DNA of 64,000 nt from a virus: positions 64,001 through 128,000 of IMG/VR virus record IMGVR_UViG_3300005673_000003. One strand, written 5' to 3'. The notes under the pieces were generated by a model, which was not told the origin of the DNA, searched no databases, and saw nothing but the letters and a program-made list of their open reading frames with translations. Position numbers and translations under genes: made by a program. Below are positions 54,914-64,000 of the stretch, one piece after another (position 1 is the first letter of the stretch; each line of letters opens with the position of its first letter).

Positions 54914-54975
54914 AGAATTCCTATCATAGGTGCTTGTTAAAGCCTACAACAGAATTCCGTGAATGAGTTGAGTAT

Positions 54976-55733: not shown

Positions 55734-56501
55734 ATGATTACCGTTACCAATAACTACCCCAAGGATCTGAAAGCCGCTATCGCTCATGAATTGTTCACCC
55801 CCAACGCTAAGCCTAAGAAAGCCGATCTAATTGCGGCTATCGAAGATTACAACGCTAAGCAATTAGAGGGTAGAGATGCCATCTCTACCGAGCCTGAAGC
55901 CGTTGCAGTTGCCAGCGAAGCGACTGAGCAAGTAACCGAGCTTGCCATCCCTGCAGTTATCGATCAGAATTTGAAAAAGGTGCTGGAACCCGATGTTCTT
56001 GAGTCTACCGAATCTGAAAAGCAATTAAATGATGAAATGGCTGCGTTCTTGAACAAGAAGCATGAAGAAGCTTATGGGGATGCAAAGCCAAAAGCAAAGG
56101 CTAAAAAGAGTGCTCCCAAAAAAGAATGGAGTACTCAGGATGATGAAATTCTAAGAAAGGCTTGCGAAGCTGGCAAAGCAGATAGATTTAATCGGGCAAA
56201 ATTTATCCTTGAATTAGTAGAAAGAGGTCAATCGATTAAAGAGATCGCATCAAGAATGGGTTTATCTACGAGTAAGGTTCAGCGTGAATCTAAAGCAATG
56301 CAAGTCTACAATCTAAGCCAGATCGTCAAGCAACTCTACGCAGATCAACAGTTATCCTGGGCAGCAATTCATGATGAGCTTGCGATTAAATCCATCAAAG
56401 ATACAAGCGTCGAGCAGTTTGATAAATTAGCCGCTGAAGTAGCAGGACGCAGGAAGCGTAAATCTAAACTAAATCAATCTAATGAGATTCAATCTGCCTA
56501 G
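55734..56501 (+). CDS. ParB/KorB-type HTH protein lacking the ParB N-terminal domain
   Basis: GQSIKEIASRMGLSTSKVQR...L...VKQL....LSW; start after leader motif and GGAG. Confidence 0.6.
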   Translation: MITVTNNYPKDLKAAIAHELFTPNAKPKKADLIAAIEDYNAKQLEGRDAISTEPEAVAVASEATEQVTELAIPAVIDQNLKKVLEPDVLESTESEKQLNDEMAAFLNKKHEEAYGDAKPKAKAKKSAPKKEWSTQDDEILRKACEAGKADRFNRAKFILELVERGQSIKEIASRMGLSTSKVQRESKAMQVYNLSQIVKQLYADQQLSWAAIHDELAIKSIKDTSVEQFDKLAAEVAGRRKRKSKLNQSNEIQSA

Positions 56502-56898
56502 TTAGATACTGTAGCCGCTTGCCAATAGATAATCCGATCATGGGATCAATGATCGGATTATCTACATACTTTCTGAAGGATAGATACCTTGAGCCAGCTA
56601 AAACAAGCAGTGCTGCATCCTGATTGAATTGCTCAAAGATTTGTCCTCCTACATGAAAAGCCCATTTATCCAGTTCATTTTTCGAGAAATCATTTAGCGT
56701 CAGATTGTACGGCTGAACCAGTTGGCTGGAATGAATTAAGTAATATTTGGCCGATAAAATGTAAATCGGCAGACCAAGTTTTTCTGCATATCCTCTTGAT
56801 TTAATAAATAAGCTGGATTTGTACAAATCGATCGCGGGTTCAGGTTTATTTGATTTTTGTTTGACGCATGAGATTAAACATGCTTGCGGCTGACTCAT
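56479..56898 (-). CDS. DUF6884-family protein
   Basis: LISCVKQK...AIDLY.S.LF...ILSAKY.LI...PYN.TL...LAG..Y...IGKRL. Confidence 0.8.
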   Translation of the reverse strand: MSQPQACLISCVKQKSNKPEPAIDLYKSSLFIKSRGYAEKLGLPIYILSAKYYLIHSSQLVQPYNLTLNDFSKNELDKWAFHVGGQIFEQFNQDAALLVLAGSRYLSFRKYVDNPIIDPMIGLSIGKRLQYLTRQIESH

Positions 56899-56913: not shown

Positions 56914-57738
56914 TTAATTTCCACGAGGATACCCGATAAACTCTTTGGCTATCCTCGCAATGACCTGACCCCATGCGATCGCTGGATTCTCGTCAAGCTC
57001 CCCCTCTTGCTGCACCAGCTCGTAAGCTTGCTTGATTAACTCCATATCCTCATGAGACGCTTTGAAGAATACCGATACATGATCACCAGACTCTTCAAAG
57101 CGCTCCCCATGCTGGCCTTGCTGCCCCTGAAAGGTGCTTTGGATGCCGCTCCCCTGAGAACCCCCAGAAGCGTACTGCTCTCCTCCTCCCCCTGCCGCCG
57201 CTGTCGCTTCATTGCGGCGTTGCTGATTCGCCTGGTGGTCGCTGTAAGCATCCTGGAAGGAGCCGCTACTGCCGTAATTATCCCAATCCGCTTCTGATAG
57301 CTTGATCAGCTCGTTTAGCTCATTCTCGGTGTAGGGTACCGCCTTAATCGTATCCACTCCCATATCTTGCTGAATATCGGCCAGCAGCTTTGCTAGGTCG
57401 ATTTTATCCATCTCGCCTCGGGTGCTGTCCAGCACTACCGTCAGCTTCTTTGCTTCAGCGTCGGATAAGTCGTGGATGATATTGACGTAAATCACCTCCT
57501 CATCCTGCATCTCCTTCCAGCGATGCTCCCCATTAATGATCTGATATACCTCCTGTTTTTCGGGGTGGGGCCGCACCAGGATTTCCTCTACCTGCCCAAC
57601 CCAATCCAGCGACTCTCGTAGAGCCTCCTGGGTGCGCTCTTTCATTCGATTGGGATTCCAATCATTCGGCTCCAATTGACTGGGATGCAACGGAACCGCT
57701 CTCTCGATTTTGTACAAAGATGACAACATGATTTCCAC
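56914..57738 (-). CDS. ParB/Srx N-terminal-domain protein associated with dpdA
   Basis: PNDWNPN...ILVR...IINGEHRW. Confidence 0.85.
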   Translation of the reverse strand: MEIMLSSLYKIERAVPLHPSQLEPNDWNPNRMKERTQEALRESLDWVGQVEEILVRPHPEKQEVYQIINGEHRWKEMQDEEVIYVNIIHDLSDAEAKKLTVVLDSTRGEMDKIDLAKLLADIQQDMGVDTIKAVPYTENELNELIKLSEADWDNYGSSGSFQDAYSDHQANQQRRNEATAAAGGGGEQYASGGSQGSGIQSTFQGQQGQHGERFEESGDHVSVFFKASHEDMELIKQAYELVQQEGELDENPAIAWGQVIARIAKEFIGYPRGN

Positions 57739-57785: not shown

Positions 57786-58919
57786 TTACCAGCTAATGCC
57801 TCTAGCTGCCCACAGCTTAGTAGATTCTTCCTCAAGCTTTTTATATTTGCGGATAGCGGCTCGAAGTACATGAATGTTTGCGGCCATAGCCGCATCAGAT
57901 TCTTTGTAGCGAGGAATATTTTTTATCCCGGCAACATCTCCACCACCAAACCGAAGGCTAGAAACCCAGCTACTTGAATCAGAGGAATAGCAAGGGTAAC
58001 GCTTGAGCACCCATTCAGTAGTTACGCCTAACAAGTGAATCTTAGGCATCTTGCCAGTCTTCTTGTAATAACTCATGACGATATGGAAGCAGCTATCTAG
58101 CCAAGCCTGTAGCAACTTCTTATTCCTCGTATAGGGCACCAGTCCGCCTAATGCGACGTAATCGTAGCCGCTAAGGGTATGGTGGAGATGCCGCAGATCT
58201 ACCCCGAAAGTGACAATAGGGAGCGGCCTCATTCCCAGGCTTTCTAGAATCGATTGATTATTCCAACTGGCATCTTGATCTCCAATTACGTCGAGATTCA
58301 TAAAATGGAGCGCTGCCATCTTACTTCTCCGGCGCTTATCGAAATCAAGCGCCCATTCCGCATACTCTTGCGGCGTTATGGTTTTTCCGGTTGACCATGC
58401 AGTGAACGCGCCAGAGTCGATGATCACCCTCGGTCTAAGGTCAACAAGGTTGCTGATAGCAGCGATCGTATCGGTTACTTCCTTTCGGTCGGCATAGGTT
58501 GCTAAATGATTGTCATGCTCTGGCTTGATTTGCTTTTCCATCTCTTTTTCCATCTCTGGAGTGGCAGAATGCCCAGCGATATGGATATTCATGGGAGTAT
58601 GCCATGAATCACGCCATTGCTCCTCTTGCTCTTGGTAGGCATAGCTAAATAAATTTTCTGTCTTTCCCTCTTCTGGAAGCAGTTCCTTAACCGATCTCTG
58701 GCCGCTCAATCTTGCTATTGTATCTGTAAGGTGAATTCGCATTGCTTTCTGGTGTAACCTTGCTAATTCATTCCATAGCTCTGCCCATTTCTTCTCATAG
58801 CCTGCATGGGCAAAGCTGAGCAAAGATCCGGTTGCAAGCTCCTCAGCAAGAAGGACTCTGGAATTCCTGCCATCCGGCAATGTATCACTGGCTCCCGCCC
58901 ATACAAAATGCACCTTCAT
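57786..58919 (-). CDS. dpdA: DpdA-like 7-deazaguanine DNA transglycosylase, copy B, with three tandem N-terminal modules
   Basis: IIDSGAF, NLDVIG, ALGGLV, IHLLG, SSDSSSW; start at MKVHF. Confidence 0.8.
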   Translation of the reverse strand: MKVHFVWAGASDTLPDGRNSRVLLAEELATGSLLSFAHAGYEKKWAELWNELARLHQKAMRIHLTDTIARLSGQRSVKELLPEEGKTENLFSYAYQEQEEQWRDSWHTPMNIHIAGHSATPEMEKEMEKQIKPEHDNHLATYADRKEVTDTIAAISNLVDLRPRVIIDSGAFTAWSTGKTITPQEYAEWALDFDKRRRSKMAALHFMNLDVIGDQDASWNNQSILESLGMRPLPIVTFGVDLRHLHHTLSGYDYVALGGLVPYTRNKKLLQAWLDSCFHIVMSYYKKTGKMPKIHLLGVTTEWVLKRYPCYSSDSSSWVSSLRFGGGDVAGIKNIPRYKESDAAMAANIHVLRAAIRKYKKLEEESTKLWAARGISW

Positions 58920-58926
58920 ACAGCGA

Positions 58927-59746
58927 TCACCAGCTAATCCCCCTGCCTGCCCACAGCTTGGTTGCCTCCTCTTCCATCCGCTTATATTTGCGGATAGCCG
59001 CTCGAAGGACATGGATGTTTGCAGCCAGGGCAGCATCGCTTTCCTTGTACCTGGGAACCTGCTGAATCCCTGCAATATCACCGCGCCCAAACCGCAAGCT
59101 GGCAACCCATGAACTCGAATCAGAGGAGAAGCAGGGATAGCGTTTCATCGCCCAATCGCTGGTTATCCCCAGCAGATGCACCTTGGGCATTTTGCCAGTC
59201 TTGCGATATTGGGCCATGACAATTTGGAAGCAGTGATCTAGCCAAGCCTGTAGCAACTTCCGGTTGCCAGAATGGGGCACCAGTCCGCCCAGTGCGACGT
59301 AATCATAATTTTCAATCGCTCTTTGCAGATGGATAATATCCGCGCCAAAAGTAATGATCGGGATGGGTCGCATCCCTAGCCCTTCTAAAATTGATTGATT
59401 AATCCATGAAGCATCTTGATCTCCAATCACATCCAGGTTCATGAAGTGAAGCGAGTCCATCCGGTGCCGCCAGCGGCTATCAAAATCCTTTGCCCACTCA
59501 GCGTACTCTTTAGGGTCAACTGCCTTGCCAAGCGTGAATGCCGTGAACGCTCCAGAGTCAATGATTACTCTGGGTCTGATGCCTTGCTGTTGCAGGACGG
59601 GTTTGTAGGCTGGCTCCTCATTTTTGTAGGCATAGCTCATGTTTGTAGGCATAGCTCATGAGATGGTTCGAGGTTGATTCGAGTAAAAGGATTTGCTGCT
59701 GAATCCGGCTATTACCAGATGGATTCGCCGCGATATAGATATTCAT
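58927..59746 (-). pseudogene. dpdA: DpdA-like copy A, frameshifted by a 19-bp tandem duplication (catalytic core 58927-59640 intact)
   Basis: ATG 59746 gives MNIYIAAN...NHLMSYAYK; removing one repeat unit gives an 801-bp ORF. Confidence 0.75.
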
Positions 59747-60456
59747 TAAGCGGTCACTGGCTGCAATTCCCGATGCTTCCAGATTGGGTCAGGAACGCCC
59801 GCCTCTTGGAAGCCTCTATCTCTTAGCAAGCAGGCCGCACATTTACCGCAACCCCCTTTAACGCCTTGATAGCAGGTATGAGTCAGCTTCATGATTGACT
59901 CAAATTTATCTCCCATCACCTCCATTGCTAGGTGGACTGATTGAGCCTTGGTGAGGCTCATTAACGGAGTTTCGATAATGAATTTCCCAGGCTCTCCAAA
60001 ATTGGCAAGGCTTAAAGCATCCTGAAGCGCATCAATAAATACTCTGCGGCAATCTGGATAGCCAGAATAATCCGTCTCGCATACACCAGTAAACAATGTA
60101 TCAATCCCTCGCACGATCGCTCGATTGGATGCAATCGTAAGGAACAAAGCATTTCTGGATGGTACAAAGGTGCTGGCTATACCATCCGGTACATCCCCAG
60201 GAGCAGAATATTCTGGCACCTGATTATCAGAAACCAGCGGCGAGGTTCCTTTAAGCACTTTCCCCAGCTCGATAACTTCATGGGATTCAACGCCCATAAT
60301 CTTGCCTATCTGCACTGCAGATTCAATCTCGATTGAATGCTTTTGGCCGTAATCGAATGTGACGCAGTGTACTTTATCGAAAACCTGCTTAGCAACCGCC
60401 AAACAGGTTGTAGAGTCCTGACCGCCGCTAAGAATAACCAAACATTGATTAGACAT
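59746..60456 (-). CDS. queC: 7-cyano-7-deazaguanine synthase
   Basis: SGGQDS, FDYGQKH, VPSRN, SGYPDCR, TCY...CGKCAAC. Confidence 0.96.
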   Translation of the reverse strand: MSNQCLVILSGGQDSTTCLAVAKQVFDKVHCVTFDYGQKHSIEIESAVQIGKIMGVESHEVIELGKVLKGTSPLVSDNQVPEYSAPGDVPDGIASTFVPSRNALFLTIASNRAIVRGIDTLFTGVCETDYSGYPDCRRVFIDALQDALSLANFGEPGKFIIETPLMSLTKAQSVHLAMEVMGDKFESIMKLTHTCYQGVKGGCGKCAACLLRDRGFQEAGVPDPIWKHRELQPVTA

Positions 60457-60631
60457 TATTCCTTCCTTGATAGGGTTTGCAGATTTCGTTCCAGACTCTC
60501 TCGTAAGCTATCTCGTACTCTCTGTAAGCAAAACTCATCAGGTAATTGGCCCATAACTCTTGAGTCATCACCTGTCCGGTAAAAATTGATTGATGACTGC
60601 GATCGTTAGGCTGGCTAAGGTGGATTTGCAT
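60449..60631 (-). CDS. Free-standing DpdA N-terminal module peptide (60 aa)
   Basis: MQIHLS...NYLMSFAYREYE...W, homologous to module 2 of DpdA-B. Confidence 0.65.
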   Translation of the reverse strand: MQIHLSQPNDRSHQSIFTGQVMTQELWANYLMSFAYREYEIAYERVWNEICKPYQGRNNV

Positions 60632-60642
60632 ACTGCTATCGA

Positions 60643-60827
60643 CTAAGGATTACGAGTGTTTTCGATATGGCTGATTAGAGCTTCCCAGTACTGTTTCCAT
60701 CGGTGTTCATGCTCTCGAAATGCGTAGGACATTAAACTATTGCAGTAGAGTTCATCTGCCAAAAGAACCCTGAAGTCCTTACCGTCTGGCCTGTTATCCC
60801 CCCCGATTTAGCTAGATGAATTCTCAT
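60643..60827 (-). pseudogene. Free-standing DpdA N-terminal module, out of frame at a G7 tract
   Basis: [10 protein letters not shown] then, in the -1 frame, DNRPDGKDFRVLLADELYCNSLMSYAF, matching PDGRNSRVLLAEELATGSLLSFA of DpdA-B. Confidence 0.65.
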
Positions 60828-62491
60828 CTCATCAACTCCAGTACTTCTGCTCTAGCGCTTGCATCCTTCCGAAACACCCCACGCATACAGCTTGTAACCG
60901 TCTCCGAACCAGGCTTAAGCACTCCGCGAGTGGTCATGCAAGTATGGGCAGCCTTGAGAATTACAGCTACTCCAGACGGGTTAAGGATGCGCTCAATGGC
61001 ATCTGCTAACTGGTCAGTCAATCGCTCTTGCAATTGAGGTCGAGCGGCTAAAATATCCAGGCAGCGAGGAATCTTGGATAGCCCAACTACCTTTCCTGAT
61101 GGGATGTAAGCTACATGAGCAACACCGTAGAAGGGAAGCAAATGATGCTCACAATTATGGGTTAGTATCCCGCAAACCAGGAAAGTCGGATGCTCATCAC
61201 ACTGAAAGCTATAAACCTTTATCGGCTTATCAATTGTTTCGACGGATGCTACCGGAATAAATTCGCTTTCTCCCAGATCTAGGGTATGCTCAATCTGCTC
61301 AAACCCATGCTTGTTAAACCATCCCCGTCTATCCCATCCCATCCCGATATACATTGCGAAGCATCCAGCACCGTTATTTACGGGATAAGGCTTTGAGCCA
61401 ACTGCATCTCCAAGTTCATCTAAGAAGCCCTTATTTGTGCTTACGATGATTTGAGCAACCCCCTTCTTAAGCTGCTTTTGTGAACCATCTCCATCGGTGT
61501 ATCCCTCAAGAAATCCATCCATAATGGATTGATCTGTCAGTACGATTTTTGGCAATCGAAATATTTTCGTCTTTGATTTGCTGCCCAGATTAAACGGAAG
61601 CCCAAGCTGCTTTAGTAGGCGTTTCGCAATTTGGCTTGACGTGAATCTAACTCGGAATTGATCTACATCCTCCTTCCTGAATCCGCTACGCTTCTTAATT
61701 TTTTGTATGGGCACCTGAACTCCAAATGCTCCCACTAATGCTTTTTGAAACTTCTCAGCAAACCATTCATCGCAAACCTCCAGGCATACTCGCCTAGCAT
61801 CCTGGATCGAACCATCAGAAGCGATCGCGCCAAGCACGTATCCCAGATCCCTATTCAGATTAAAGGCAAATTGCTCTTTACATAAAGTTCTGGGATTAAT
61901 CCATTCGATAAGCTCTCCCGGATTAAGTTTGCCAGCTTCCTGCCAGCCGTACGGGGTTTTAATTGGATGATCTGGAGTAACCCCTATCTCGATGCCGTTG
62001 ATAAGCTTTAATCGGGTTATCGAAGGAGCTTCATGAGAGGTGACGGATTTAACCGTAGTCTGCACTGGAATTCCATGCTGAAGAGTCCATAGCCTATCTC
62101 CAGCTTTAATACTCCTTGCTTTTCTTGCCCCGCCAACCGCATTTACCAATTGATAGCCTGGTAAACATAAGCTGAAAAACTGAATATCCCGAATCAGTAC
62201 TATCTCATCATGGGTGCATTCAAAGGTTTTTACGAGTGGCAGCAATGGGTCTTCATGCAATCCAGCCGTAATCGTCGCCCAATGCTTTGCAACCCTGGCA
62301 GGAGTATCTCGCATCCCATCGCCGTCAAGCTTAGCTCCCCACAATAAACGCATTGCCGAGGATAGATGTGTTTCCACCTGAGCGAGTGTAGAGGCATCGA
62401 CTGGTGCAGGTTTCGTTGATCTGGACTGCAAGCAATCCTCTAAGTCCAGATTCTGAAAGTCGCTCGAAAAGCCATTCTGCGATCGCTTCAC
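60824..62491 (-). CDS. folE: GTP cyclohydrolase I with intein; start uncertain
   Basis: DTPARVA, FFSL|intein|[30 protein letters not shown]. Confidence 0.93.
61154..62167 (-). mobile_element. Intein with LAGLIDADG homing endonuclease (338 aa)
   Basis: Starts CLPG, TPDHP block B, LGAIASDG and [10 protein letters not shown], ends HN before Cys+1. Confidence 0.92.
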
Positions 62492-62759
62492 TCGTCGGAT
62501 TCTCCATCTCTAATGTGTCGTTAAGATGCCAATGATCTAAAAATTGATTGATTAACGGATTGAGCGCTGCTTTGATTTCCGAATAATCCATCACCATACC
62601 CTGCTTAGGCCCAGCGGTTTGCAGTGCATCCCCTTGGACGTAAATAATCCCTTTCCAGCTATGACCATGCAATCGGGCACACTTGCCATCATGGTTGGGC
62701 AGAAAATGAGATGCTTCAAAGGAAAACTCCTTTCCTAGAATCCATTTAGGTTGCATCAC
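62331..62759 (-). CDS. queD: 6-carboxytetrahydropterin synthase
   Basis: [28 protein letters not shown]. Confidence 0.95.
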
Positions 62760-63367
62760 CGCACTCCTATGTATTTGTGCATTTGAAGAGAAAGGCGGTA
62801 GCCAGGATTAGAGCGCAAGAGGTAAAGGCAGATTGGCAGCGTGCGCTCCCGGTCATCCCACTCCGACTGCAGGAAGACTGGCACCATTGGATCTTCTGGT
62901 AGCCACTTCCGATAGAATGCCAGCTCGTCGCCTGACGAAATGACGATTTTAATCTCGCTGGCATTTACCCAGAATTCGGGCTGCACCGGATACTTAGGAT
63001 TCAGATGCTGTTTAGGGCTAAGTGTTATCCATACCCCTGTAGGCAGCTTCTGCCATGCCGCTCCACTGGTTTCGATATGAACCGTTTTATTAGCGGCGTG
63101 CAGCGCTGCAACCAGCTCTGGTAGATTGCGCTGAATAAATGGCTCCCCACCCGTAATCACCACCCTGGAAGACTTTAATCTCCCAATCAAATCACTAATC
63201 TCTTGCTCTGATTGAGGTAAAAATTTGCCACCATCAGAGTAGCCGGTATCACACCATCGGCAACCAACCGGGCATCCATACAGCCTGATAAAGTCACATG
63301 GCGTGCCTGCCCAGTAGCCTTCCCCTTGGATTGTTTGCTGAAAATCTTCCTGGACTCGGATTCTCAC
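62756..63367 (-). CDS. queE: 7-carboxy-7-deazaguanine synthase (radical SAM); GTG start at 63367
   Basis: TIQGEG, CPVGCRWCDT, ITGGEP, IETSG, LSPK, LSLQMHK. Confidence 0.92.
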   Translation of the reverse strand: MRIRVQEDFQQTIQGEGYWAGTPCDFIRLYGCPVGCRWCDTGYSDGGKFLPQSEQEISDLIGRLKSSRVVITGGEPFIQRNLPELVAALHAANKTVHIETSGAAWQKLPTGVWITLSPKQHLNPKYPVQPEFWVNASEIKIVISSGDELAFYRKWLPEDPMVPVFLQSEWDDRERTLPICLYLLRSNPGYRLSLQMHKYIGVR

Positions 63368-64000
63368 GGAAATGGGTGGGTTCGGGAGGGGTGAAGCCCC
63401 TGGCTTCAGACATGGGGAGGTAATAGCCCCTCCCGCGCCTGCGGTAGCAGGCAGAGTCTCAAAATCCATACGAATAACCGTCCTTCTTGTGGATTGGTTT
63501 GCAATATTTGTGGCTGATACCTGCCACCCTTCCGGCAGTGGTGTTGATATCGAAACTGCCTGATGCACGACAAAGAACTCGACCCACATAAGAGCCGATT
63601 TTCTTACCTGCTGTAACAGTTGCGGTAACGATATCGCCTGTTTGAAAGCCTTTGTGAATCTGGACTCTGGATTTATGGCGAGTGGGAAAGCCGTACTTAT
63701 CCGTTCCACACATCTGCCGACTTCCATGCCCTTTTGCCGCAATCAGCAACGGCTTTGAAGCGAGAACTTTCAACGTTCCAACATTGCCAACACACGCCGC
63801 ATCAAACCAATGAGATTTAGGCAGATTTAACCGAGTGCGATTGAACTTGGTTTGTCCACCTGTCCCCGTGGTTACTGGCAAACCCGTTATCTTCAGAGCG
63901 TTGAACAATGCCCATCGGGTAGAGTTGACCGCAGCCGCATCTTTAAGCGGTGATTTTGCCTGTTTGAGAATTCGACTCAGCAAATCAGGCTTATCCGCTA
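63368..64000 (-). mobile_element. IscB-encoding IS200/IS605 element; right end abuts the queE start
   Basis: Right-end hairpin CTCCCCATGTCTGAAGCCAGGGG followed by GTGAGA. Confidence 0.7.
63459..64000 (-). CDS. iscB: IscB, C-terminal part (5' end outside the window)
   Basis: KSPLKDAAAVNSTRW, TKFNR, KSHWFDAACVG, GFQTGD, DGYSY. Confidence 0.9.
   Translation of the reverse strand, partial: ADKPDLLSRILKQAKSPLKDAAAVNSTRWALFNALKITGLPVTTGTGGQTKFNRTRLNLPKSHWFDAACVGNVGTLKVLASKPLLIAAKGHGSRQMCGTDKYGFPTRHKSRVQIHKGFQTGDIVTATVTAGKKIGSYVGRVLCRASGSFDINTTAGRVAGISHKYCKPIHKKDGYSYGF

Follow-up and report, generated by a model that had tools for sequence, protein, structure and literature searches.

The N-terminal quarter of a putative phage DpdA, an enzyme predicted to exchange guanine for 7-deazaguanine in DNA, occurs as six homologous cassettes in a 64-kb stretch of viral DNA. 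This stretch, referred to below as the window, comprises bases 64001-128000 of the 148,728-bp viral record IMGVR_UViG_3300005673_000003. The cassettes, termed units M1 to M6 and each about 50 amino acids (aa) long, all lie on the minus strand around two dpdA cores: M1 and M2 are mini-genes of their own, M3 stands ahead of core A, and M4, M5 and M6 are fused in frame ahead of core B. In related loci, units of the same kind form arrays or mini-genes, open with start codons and hold most of the long G/C runs, whose lengths place reading frames in or out of register between near-identical genomes. These features are read here, with slightly better than even confidence, as a hypermutable cassette system that varies the N-terminal quarter-barrel of DpdA.

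The quarter-barrel unit and its six copies

The structural identity of the unit was assigned with an AlphaFold2 model of M6 joined to core B, built on an alignment of 88 homologues that mostly carry a single unit. The model is a closed (beta-alpha)8 barrel with eight strands, with a predicted local distance difference test score (pLDDT) of 93.9 and a predicted template modelling score (pTM) of 0.91. The unit supplies beta1 (residues 2-6), alpha1 (12-25), beta2 (28-32) and alpha2 (36-47), and the core opens with beta3 at the conserved IDSGAF motif. As modelled, the unit is therefore the beta1-alpha1-beta2-alpha2 quarter of the (beta-alpha)8 barrel of phage DpdA, a barrel of the tRNA-guanine transglycosylase (TGT) type. 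An earlier model-written note on the window, made without database searches and called the sequence-only reading below, had proposed that the unit forms the first beta-loop-beta part of such a barrel, and the model bears this out. Because the unit contributes beta1 to alpha2 and the core starts at beta3, the core alone would be a three-quarter barrel of six strands, and the best reading of the model is that it needs one quarter unit to close.

The assignment of the two genes to phage DpdA rests on profile, fold and genomic context. A Foldseek search with the model of M6 and core B retrieves archaeosine TGT, bacterial and human TGT and bacterial DpdA (1j2b, 1iq8, 7nq4, 7ui4) at probability 1.0 and with TM scores of 0.50-0.64. 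Among phage profiles, both genes match phrog_887, annotated as phage 'queuine tRNA-ribosyltransferase' (3.4e-36 for dpdA-B, from residue 104, and 7.1e-34 for dpdA-A); phrog_7068 is matched as well. A tblastn search matches 224 phage records, and the matches to named phage DpdA begin at DpdA-B residue 110/111, which is the start of M6, so one unit is the normal N-terminus of the phage DpdA family. The preQ0-synthesis genes folE, queD, queE and queC share an operon with the dpdA genes. Pfam, including its TGT family, returns no family for either DpdA at an E value of 0.01, and a sequence-profile search of the PDB gives a match at chance level only. The exchange of guanine for 7-deazaguanine in DNA is accordingly a predicted activity.

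Residues D59, D101 and D205 are invariant in the 88 homologues and correspond to D32, D74 and D178 of core A; an invariant His is also present in both cores (H159 in core A). As expected, the three Asp and the His fit the acid/base, nucleophile and base-binding roles described for DpdA (PMC10164549), with the general acid/base after beta3 and the nucleophile after beta8. The three Asp would be equivalent to Asp95/Asp130/Asp256 of DpdA, to judge from position in the fold and not from residue alignment. The zinc-site cysteine cluster of tRNA TGTs is not visible in either DpdA translation, where a single near-invariant Cys precedes an SSDSSSW motif; the zinc-site test concerns classical tRNA TGTs and not phage DpdA.

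All six units recognized by the sequence-only reading lie where it placed them and are upheld as homologues by shuffled alignments and by profile. Pairwise Smith-Waterman comparisons among M1 to M5 give z scores of 7-19 against 500 shuffles (19.4 for M1-M4, 11.3 for M1-M2 and 10.1 for M4-M5), and M6 aligns with M3 at a z score of 7.1 in the same test. A hidden Markov model (HMM) of the unit recovers all six in the 148.7-kb genome with independent E values of 1e-8 to 2e-17 and detects no further copy there. The PDG/RVLLA-EL stretch reported as common to M1 and M4 is also real. For M2, Pfam gives no family and PHROGs no match, and a feature search of the ESM Atlas with two distal units found nothing.

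The units differ in their present state. M1 (60643..60827, minus strand; HMM match 60676-60768, E 4.5e-9) is a free mini-gene of the distal type that is off as written. Its ATG at 60827 leads to a stop after 31 codons. Past a run of seven G (60798..60804, C7 on the plus strand) within the codons of the beta1-alpha1 loop, the homologous sequence continues in the -1 frame; G8 in place of G7 would join the two frames. M2 (60449..60631, minus; HMM E 1.3e-8) is an intact free mini-gene of the distal type encoding 60 aa, and its stop overlaps the start of queC (TAATG). Of the two free-standing mini-genes previously listed, M2 thus stands as described and M1 is not one open frame, since it requires the G7 run to be crossed.

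M3 (59618..59746, minus; HMM E 7e-13) is the proximal unit of dpdA-A and is now an open reading frame (ORF) of 42 aa. A perfect 19-nucleotide tandem duplication within the beta2 codons (59623..59660, minus), visible in the sequence itself, puts M3 and core A out of frame with each other and leaves this unit ORF and a core ORF of 241 aa, which restarts within the duplicated beta2 codons. The core ORF (58927..59652, minus; phrog_887 7.1e-34, core HMM 8e-114) contains a beta2 remnant, beta3 to beta8 and the C-terminal helix. A unit is consequently present on dpdA-A, as had been proposed, with its fusion to the core broken by the duplication.

dpdA-B begins with M4 (58743..58919, minus; residues 1-59), which is M1-like with the z score of 19.4 given above, and continues with M5 (58593..58742, minus; residues 60-109) and the proximal unit M6 (58431..58592, minus; residues 110-163), each of which has an internal ATG start. 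The identity of M6 is drawn from tblastn, phrog_887 and the AlphaFold2 model. Core B follows (57786..58430, minus; core HMM 5e-116, AlphaFold2 pLDDT >90) with beta3 to beta8, the C-terminal helix and the stop. The Trp-rich helix previously said to follow most units is present in the distal-type units M1, M2, M4 and M5 and is lacking in M6. As judged from the DNA, the current state of the locus is an intact dpdA-B with three cassettes, a split dpdA-A, M1 off at G7 and M2 on.

Arrays, mini-genes and start codons in related loci

Counts with the unit HMM in the 120 closest database homologues run from one unit (24 proteins) through two (42), three (27) and four (22) to five (2). Judged on cluster representatives, 15 of the 40 nearest clusters include multi-unit forms, which are almost absent further out. 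In-frame arrays of one to five units ahead of the core are a family-wide feature of this DpdA clade. Unit positions are invariant across units. The units within one protein are about 25-40% identical, which indicates that the arrays are old. The most variable columns of the unit are 12-32. Distal-type units form a class of their own, marked by a beta2 of the SYAY type and a Trp-rich alpha2. Three pairs of homologues (P0004/P0039, P0022/P0061 and P0007/P0043) have near-identical cores and first units, yet differ by entire cassettes or in the middle ones. In some identical-core homologues (P0061, P0043) a distal-type unit stands directly against the core.

In the tree the two cores of this genome are sisters; they share 75% aa identity and have a ratio of nonsynonymous to synonymous divergence (omega) of about 0.08, so the duplicated cores of the sequence-only reading are retained as sister paralogues. 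A recent duplication is rejected because synonymous divergence (dS) is saturated between cores A and B, and decay of core A is rejected because all invariant residues are kept. By these comparisons the core duplication is real, though old, and the two cores are a lineage-specific pair. Another viral contig encodes two tandem DpdA cores, a core followed by a unit and core (L020:2-1452), so paired dpdA genes are not unique to this genome.

Mini-genes are also found beyond this genome. Relatives with a single dpdA (L007, L008, L009, L012, L013, L025, L049) have the order folE, one to three unit mini-genes, queC and then dpdA with its array. L049 contains orthologues of M1 and M2 and a third mini-gene; its M1 orthologue is likewise out of frame (G10), and its M2 orthologue has a G7 tract. 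A C-terminal tail common to the mini-genes is absent from the proximal unit. Where dS is unsaturated, omega between mini-genes is 0.02-0.07, even for pairs with an out-of-frame allele, and this ratio indicates that the mini-genes are under purifying selection. A search for further mini-gene loci returned four loci on viral contigs, already known, and eight on metagenome contigs. Between two mini-genes of L012 (4990-5140) and L013 (4900-5040) lies a fused remnant in which the first codons of queC are joined to the last codons of folE. It resembles what a tandem duplication across the folE-mini-gene-queC junction would leave behind, and such duplications may be a route by which mini-genes multiply.

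These relatives bear directly on the history proposed by the sequence-only reading, in which a three-unit dpdA was duplicated, queC was inserted into copy A, and M1 and M2 are the detached head of that copy, the whole giving combinatorial specificity. The likeness of M1 to M4 and of M3 to M6 does mirror the gene order, the cores are sister paralogues, and docking in trans is predicted (see below). Three observations speak against it: single-dpdA relatives also carry mini-genes in the interval from folE to queC, L049 has orthologues of both M1 and M2, and the mini-genes possess a C-terminal tail peculiar to them. Given the first two of these, copy A was not split by queC, and the gene comparisons identify M1 and M2 as conserved stand-alone genes. 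The data thus suggest that M1 and M2 belong with the mini-genes of other phages and not with the array units of dpdA-A or dpdA-B. The duplication-and-splitting history as a whole is highly improbable.

The units of the related loci also share a feature at the level of the codon. The codon at the first aligned position of each unit was read from the raw DNA. Among 40 distinct units it is ATG in 22, GTG in 14, TTG in three and GTT in one, which places a start codon in 39 of 40; for internal units only, the counts are ATG 14, GTG 7, TTG 2 and GTT 1. Neither Ile codons nor CTG occur at this position among the 40 units, though they are single-step hydrophobic neighbours of ATG. GTG accounts for 14 of the 15 Val codons at unit starts, compared with a fraction of 0.23 in cores (P 1.4e-8), and TTG for all three Leu codons, compared with 9% in cores. 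Because the arrays are old, this rule reflects selection and not youth. Purine motifs resembling Shine-Dalgarno sequences lie upstream of 17 of 24 internal starts and of 301 of 811 control codons (P 0.001), a signal that is suggestive only, as it is confounded with the conserved Trp-Asp/Glu-Glu codons.

The sequence-only reading further held that units could act in trans, and predicted docking agrees with this for M2. The complex of the core A ORF and M2, both supplied as alignments, scores 0.87, and the best control scores 0.43. The 0.87 mark is reached by 58 of 80 solved complexes and by 2 of 110 mismatched pairs, counts that are rough since custom alignments were used. Model runs agree in at least 90% of contacts, with a partner pLDDT of at least 78. 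In the complex, beta8 of the core (residues 175-178) pairs with M2 residues 2-5 and beta3 of the core (residues 28-31) with M2 residues 29-32, which is the geometry of the intact barrel and places M2 as beta1 and beta2 of core A. As the docking copies the enzyme's own fold, the high score speaks for the compatibility of a distal-type free unit with this site and not for binding in the cell.

Homopolymer tracts and the proposed cassette mechanism

The G7 run of M1 is the sole G/C run of at least 7 nucleotides in the window. The whole 148.7-kb genome, for which about 11 such runs are expected, has one more, a G8 at position 54917, about 9 kb upstream of the window start, at a meeting point of short ORFs from the two strands. 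This G8 may be another slippery site. At the position of the M1 tract, just after beta1, relatives have G6-G10 or C8-C9. Related loci totalling 254 kb without redundancy contain 23 G/C runs of at least 7 nucleotides, 18 of them in unit DNA, which makes up 4.8% of the total (nominal P 4e-20); orthologous tracts are not independent counts, and about eight distinct unit positions compared with five outside still amount to a strong excess.

Tract length changes between close relatives. One mini-gene with identical flanks is in frame with G7 in L050, out of frame with G8 in L051 and in frame with G10 in L008, and the tract of an array unit is out of frame as G7 in L005 and in frame as G8 in L007. 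L012 and L013 share an otherwise identical 5.2-kb block spanning the operon, with five differences, all in unit DNA: G7/G8, C9/C8, C4/C3, one missense change and one TAG/AAG. The in-frame TAG of L012 (6511-6513) stands between its four-unit array and the core, where L013 has AAG, and the first array unit of L013 is out of frame (C3, compared with C4 in L012). The same G6 and G10 alleles turn up again, without change, in independent metagenome assemblies; the out-of-frame G6 is present in three. The tracts have two of the properties of a contingency locus, namely a position within coding sequence and a frame-toggling length polymorphism between near-identical genomes, and may reflect phase variation in vivo.

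One alternative is that the G tracts that are one base short are decoded by programmed -1 frameshifting or transcriptional slippage, giving short and full-length products in a fixed ratio. The M1 run, TCG GGG GGG, forms a slippery heptamer of the X XXY YYZ type in the zero frame, from which a -1 slip reaches the conserved frame; six out-of-frame mini-gene alleles fit the same scheme, as their frames are read here, and the downstream frame is conserved in the three assemblies with the out-of-frame G6. Other alleles are in frame as they stand (L013, L008, L050, L025), and in three there is one base too many (the third L049 mini-gene, L051 with G8 and L012 with C9); the alleles therefore do not follow one conserved recoding rule. 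Recoding of this kind is distinctly improbable as the explanation of the tracts.

It has also been considered that the units have no function and are decaying leftovers of 5' duplications, with frame differences arising as homopolymer assembly errors in metagenomes. All relatives are indeed metagenomic contigs, and most out-of-frame alleles are one base short. This account is hard to reconcile with the omega of the mini-genes, with unit positions that are invariant despite 25-40% identity between units, with the start codon kept in 39 of 40 units, or with the concentration of 18 of 23 tracts in 4.8% of the DNA. The in-frame G7 and G10 alleles differ by 3 nucleotides, and identical alleles recur in independent samples. 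Two of the differences between L012 and L013 are substitutions, and the C3/C4 indel lies in a run too short for the usual homopolymer error. Lack of function in the units, coupled with assembly error, is scarcely probable at all.

The favoured cassette system would operate as follows. The quarter-barrel of this clade would serve as a cassette, present in one to five copies in frame before the core and one to three free copies, each with its own start codon and many with poly-G or poly-C after beta1. Slippage in a tract, or here also the 19-nucleotide duplication, would shift the frame and so determine the set of cassettes produced and their state, fused to the core or free. Translation would restart at the start codon of the next cassette, so that a core with at least its proximal unit would still be made. 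Free or distal cassettes would take the place of beta1 and beta2, in cis or in trans, and would bring a different alpha1 segment. The tract and the most variable columns of the unit follow beta1, a position that in (beta-alpha)8 barrels as a general rule faces the catalytic side. A variable segment at this place could plausibly alter DpdA activity or the choice of guanines exchanged, and progeny differing in modification pattern would form a bet-hedge against host restriction and nucleases that act on modified DNA. Switching in vivo, the use of internal starts, completion of the barrel by distal units and any effect on specificity are the parts of this scheme that we infer. Its fullest form, in which interchangeable quarter-barrel cassettes complete the triosephosphate isomerase (TIM) barrel, hypermutable homopolymers choose among them, and a population thereby varies the context or extent of modification, is tentative and rather unlikely as stated.

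Several observations weigh against the cassette system, apart from the confounded purine motifs and the non-independent tract counts given above. The AlphaFold2 model of the complete three-unit DpdA-B has a confident core and N-terminal units with pLDDT of only 37-79, so that the distal units are not placed in cis; a Foldseek search with this model is weak, with 7ui4 as the best match (E 1.4e-3). All relatives are metagenomic contigs, and errors of assembly could account for part of the variation in length. Out-of-frame alleles lack a single base in about 8 of 11 cases, judged from the flanking frames, as also fits homopolymer under-calling or -1 recoding, and about one-third of mini-gene alleles are in frame, which is the expectation for unselected tract lengths. 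A long homopolymer is absent from dpdA-B of this genome.

The poorly placed distal units also fit a different role, in which the extra units would be regulators, acting through competition for the core or through contact with another partner, such as the ParB-like protein, DNA or a host TGT/Dpd protein. Modification would be tuned or shut off with its target unchanged, and the tracts would switch its level on and off. The separate class formed by distal-type units (the SYAY-type beta2 and Trp-rich alpha2) and the C-terminal tail of the mini-genes, absent from the proximal unit, are consistent with such a role, and the agt gene of phage T2 is a precedent for an on/off switch of modification. 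The predicted position of M2, exactly at the beta1/beta2 site of the core, argues for barrel completion, as do P0061 and P0043, where only distal-type units adjoin identical cores, so that the barrel there must be one that a distal-type unit can close. Regulation as the sole role of the extra units is unlikely, though it is among the alternatives to be taken seriously.

Known systems and the operon setting

Phage DpdA proteins already described (phrog_887; subfamilies of PMC6884629 and PMC10516641) resemble the proteins of this locus in the TGT-type barrel, in a match that begins at the proximal unit, in the neighbouring folE, queD, queE and queC genes and in the predicted insertion of a preQ0-type base after replication. 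They have one N-terminal quarter, whereas this genome and its nearest clade have one to five in-frame copies together with mini-genes, start codons and tracts, and this genome differs further in its two paralogous cores. Term searches on repeats and N-terminal features within a set of DpdA papers found no mention of quarter-barrel arrays, start codons or tracts, and a study of a DpdA whose motif is strictly GA is silent on which part of the protein sets the motif.

Bacterial DpdA/DpdB (PDB 7ui4; PMC10164549) shares the fold, the three invariant Asp and the His, and an adjoining gene for a ParB-fold partner. The phage protein is much smaller (about 268 aa for unit and core), lacks a PDB sequence match and a visible CxCxxC-type cluster, and belongs to a phage counter-defence operon in place of a restriction-modification island.

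Coding homopolymers that toggle frames are known in phages. The receptor-binding genes of Campylobacter phages carry poly-G tracts. Homopolymer contingency loci were reported in 2025 for T2/T4, including the glucosyltransferase gene agt, a DNA-modification gene (bioRxiv 10.1101/2025.10.21.683753). The present tracts are alike in that the length of a coding homopolymer toggles the frame and, as with T2 agt, in that the target is a DNA-modification function. They differ in lying within sub-domain cassettes and mini-genes with restart codons, and the proposed outcome is a change of composition and not simple loss of the enzyme.

In bacterial phasevarions and in shuffling type I hsdS systems, hypermutable repeats or cassette exchange vary DNA-modifying activity across a population. 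The phase-variable methyltransferases of bacteria vary a separate target-recognition domain or the whole gene, whereas the variable piece here is an integral quarter of the barrel. Fragment complementation of barrels is familiar from work on HisA/HisF. Half- and quarter-barrel models of TIM-barrel evolution (review PMC8250049) likewise treat the (beta-alpha)2 unit as a duplicable, independent module able to complete a barrel; these models rest on laboratory reconstructions and inferred ancestors, whereas the locus would be an extant natural system with free-standing genes.

Phage DpdA enzymes guard DNA against restriction, and the locus provides a natural set of variants in which the same core is found with different N-terminal quarters, both within one genome and among near-identical relatives. 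If the cassette system is true, its free units would be the first extant free-standing (beta-alpha)2 quarter-barrels that complete a TIM-barrel enzyme and would give a handle on the model of barrel evolution. Phase-variable choice of a sub-domain would be a new route of enzyme diversification, and phage contingency loci would extend to a modular DNA-modification system in cyanophages.

The viral record bears direct terminal repeats, and the closest named relatives of the locus are cyanobacterial or cyanophage sequences; a megablast search of 24 kb against phage records found nothing. The best reading of the locus is the transglycosylase end of a cyanophage operon for DNA modification with preQ0-type 7-deazaguanines. 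The operon runs on the minus strand in the order queE, queD, folE (with an intein), M1, M2, queC, dpdA-A, dpdA-B, a parB-like gene and a DUF6884 gene. A relative, L004, has its preQ0-synthesis genes and dpdA in the same order, and L005 shows queE, queC and dpdA together.

The first gene, queE (62756..63370, minus), encodes a radical-SAM 7-carboxy-7-deazaguanine synthase (Pfam Radical_SAM 1.3e-10, Fer4_12). Its 5' limit is approximate; the listed ORF extends to 63742. An ORF of at least 174 aa (63459-63998, minus), with no Pfam match, overlaps the upstream extension of this frame. In the operon, queE is followed by queD (62331..62759, minus), of the 6-pyruvoyl-tetrahydropterin synthase family (Pfam PTPS 2.2e-31), and by folE, which encodes GTP cyclohydrolase I (60824..62353, minus, with an approximate start that reaches 62491 at the widest). 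The GTP_cyclohydroI match of folE (Pfam 2.7e-60) falls in two stretches, split by an intein with a LAGLIDADG homing-endonuclease domain (Pfam LAGLIDADG_3, Intein_splicing); folE of L004 encodes 173 aa and is without the intein. The stop of folE overlaps the start of M1 (ATGA). After the mini-genes, queC (59746..60456, minus) encodes 7-cyano-7-deazaguanine synthase (Pfam QueC 8.7e-64).

Downstream of dpdA-B lies a gene with a ParB-N domain (56914..57738, minus; Pfam ParB_N 1.8e-7, phrog_723 5.4e-23). Bacterial DpdB is a ParB-like ATPase required alongside bacterial DpdA (PMC10164549), and the ParB-N-domain protein may be its candidate counterpart. The gene after dpdA in L004 has a ParB_N match just below the Pfam cut-off, and its equivalent in L005 gives no family match; in neither L004 nor L005 is this gene a second core. 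The operon ends with the DUF6884 gene (56479..56898, minus; Pfam DUF6884 9.3e-35).

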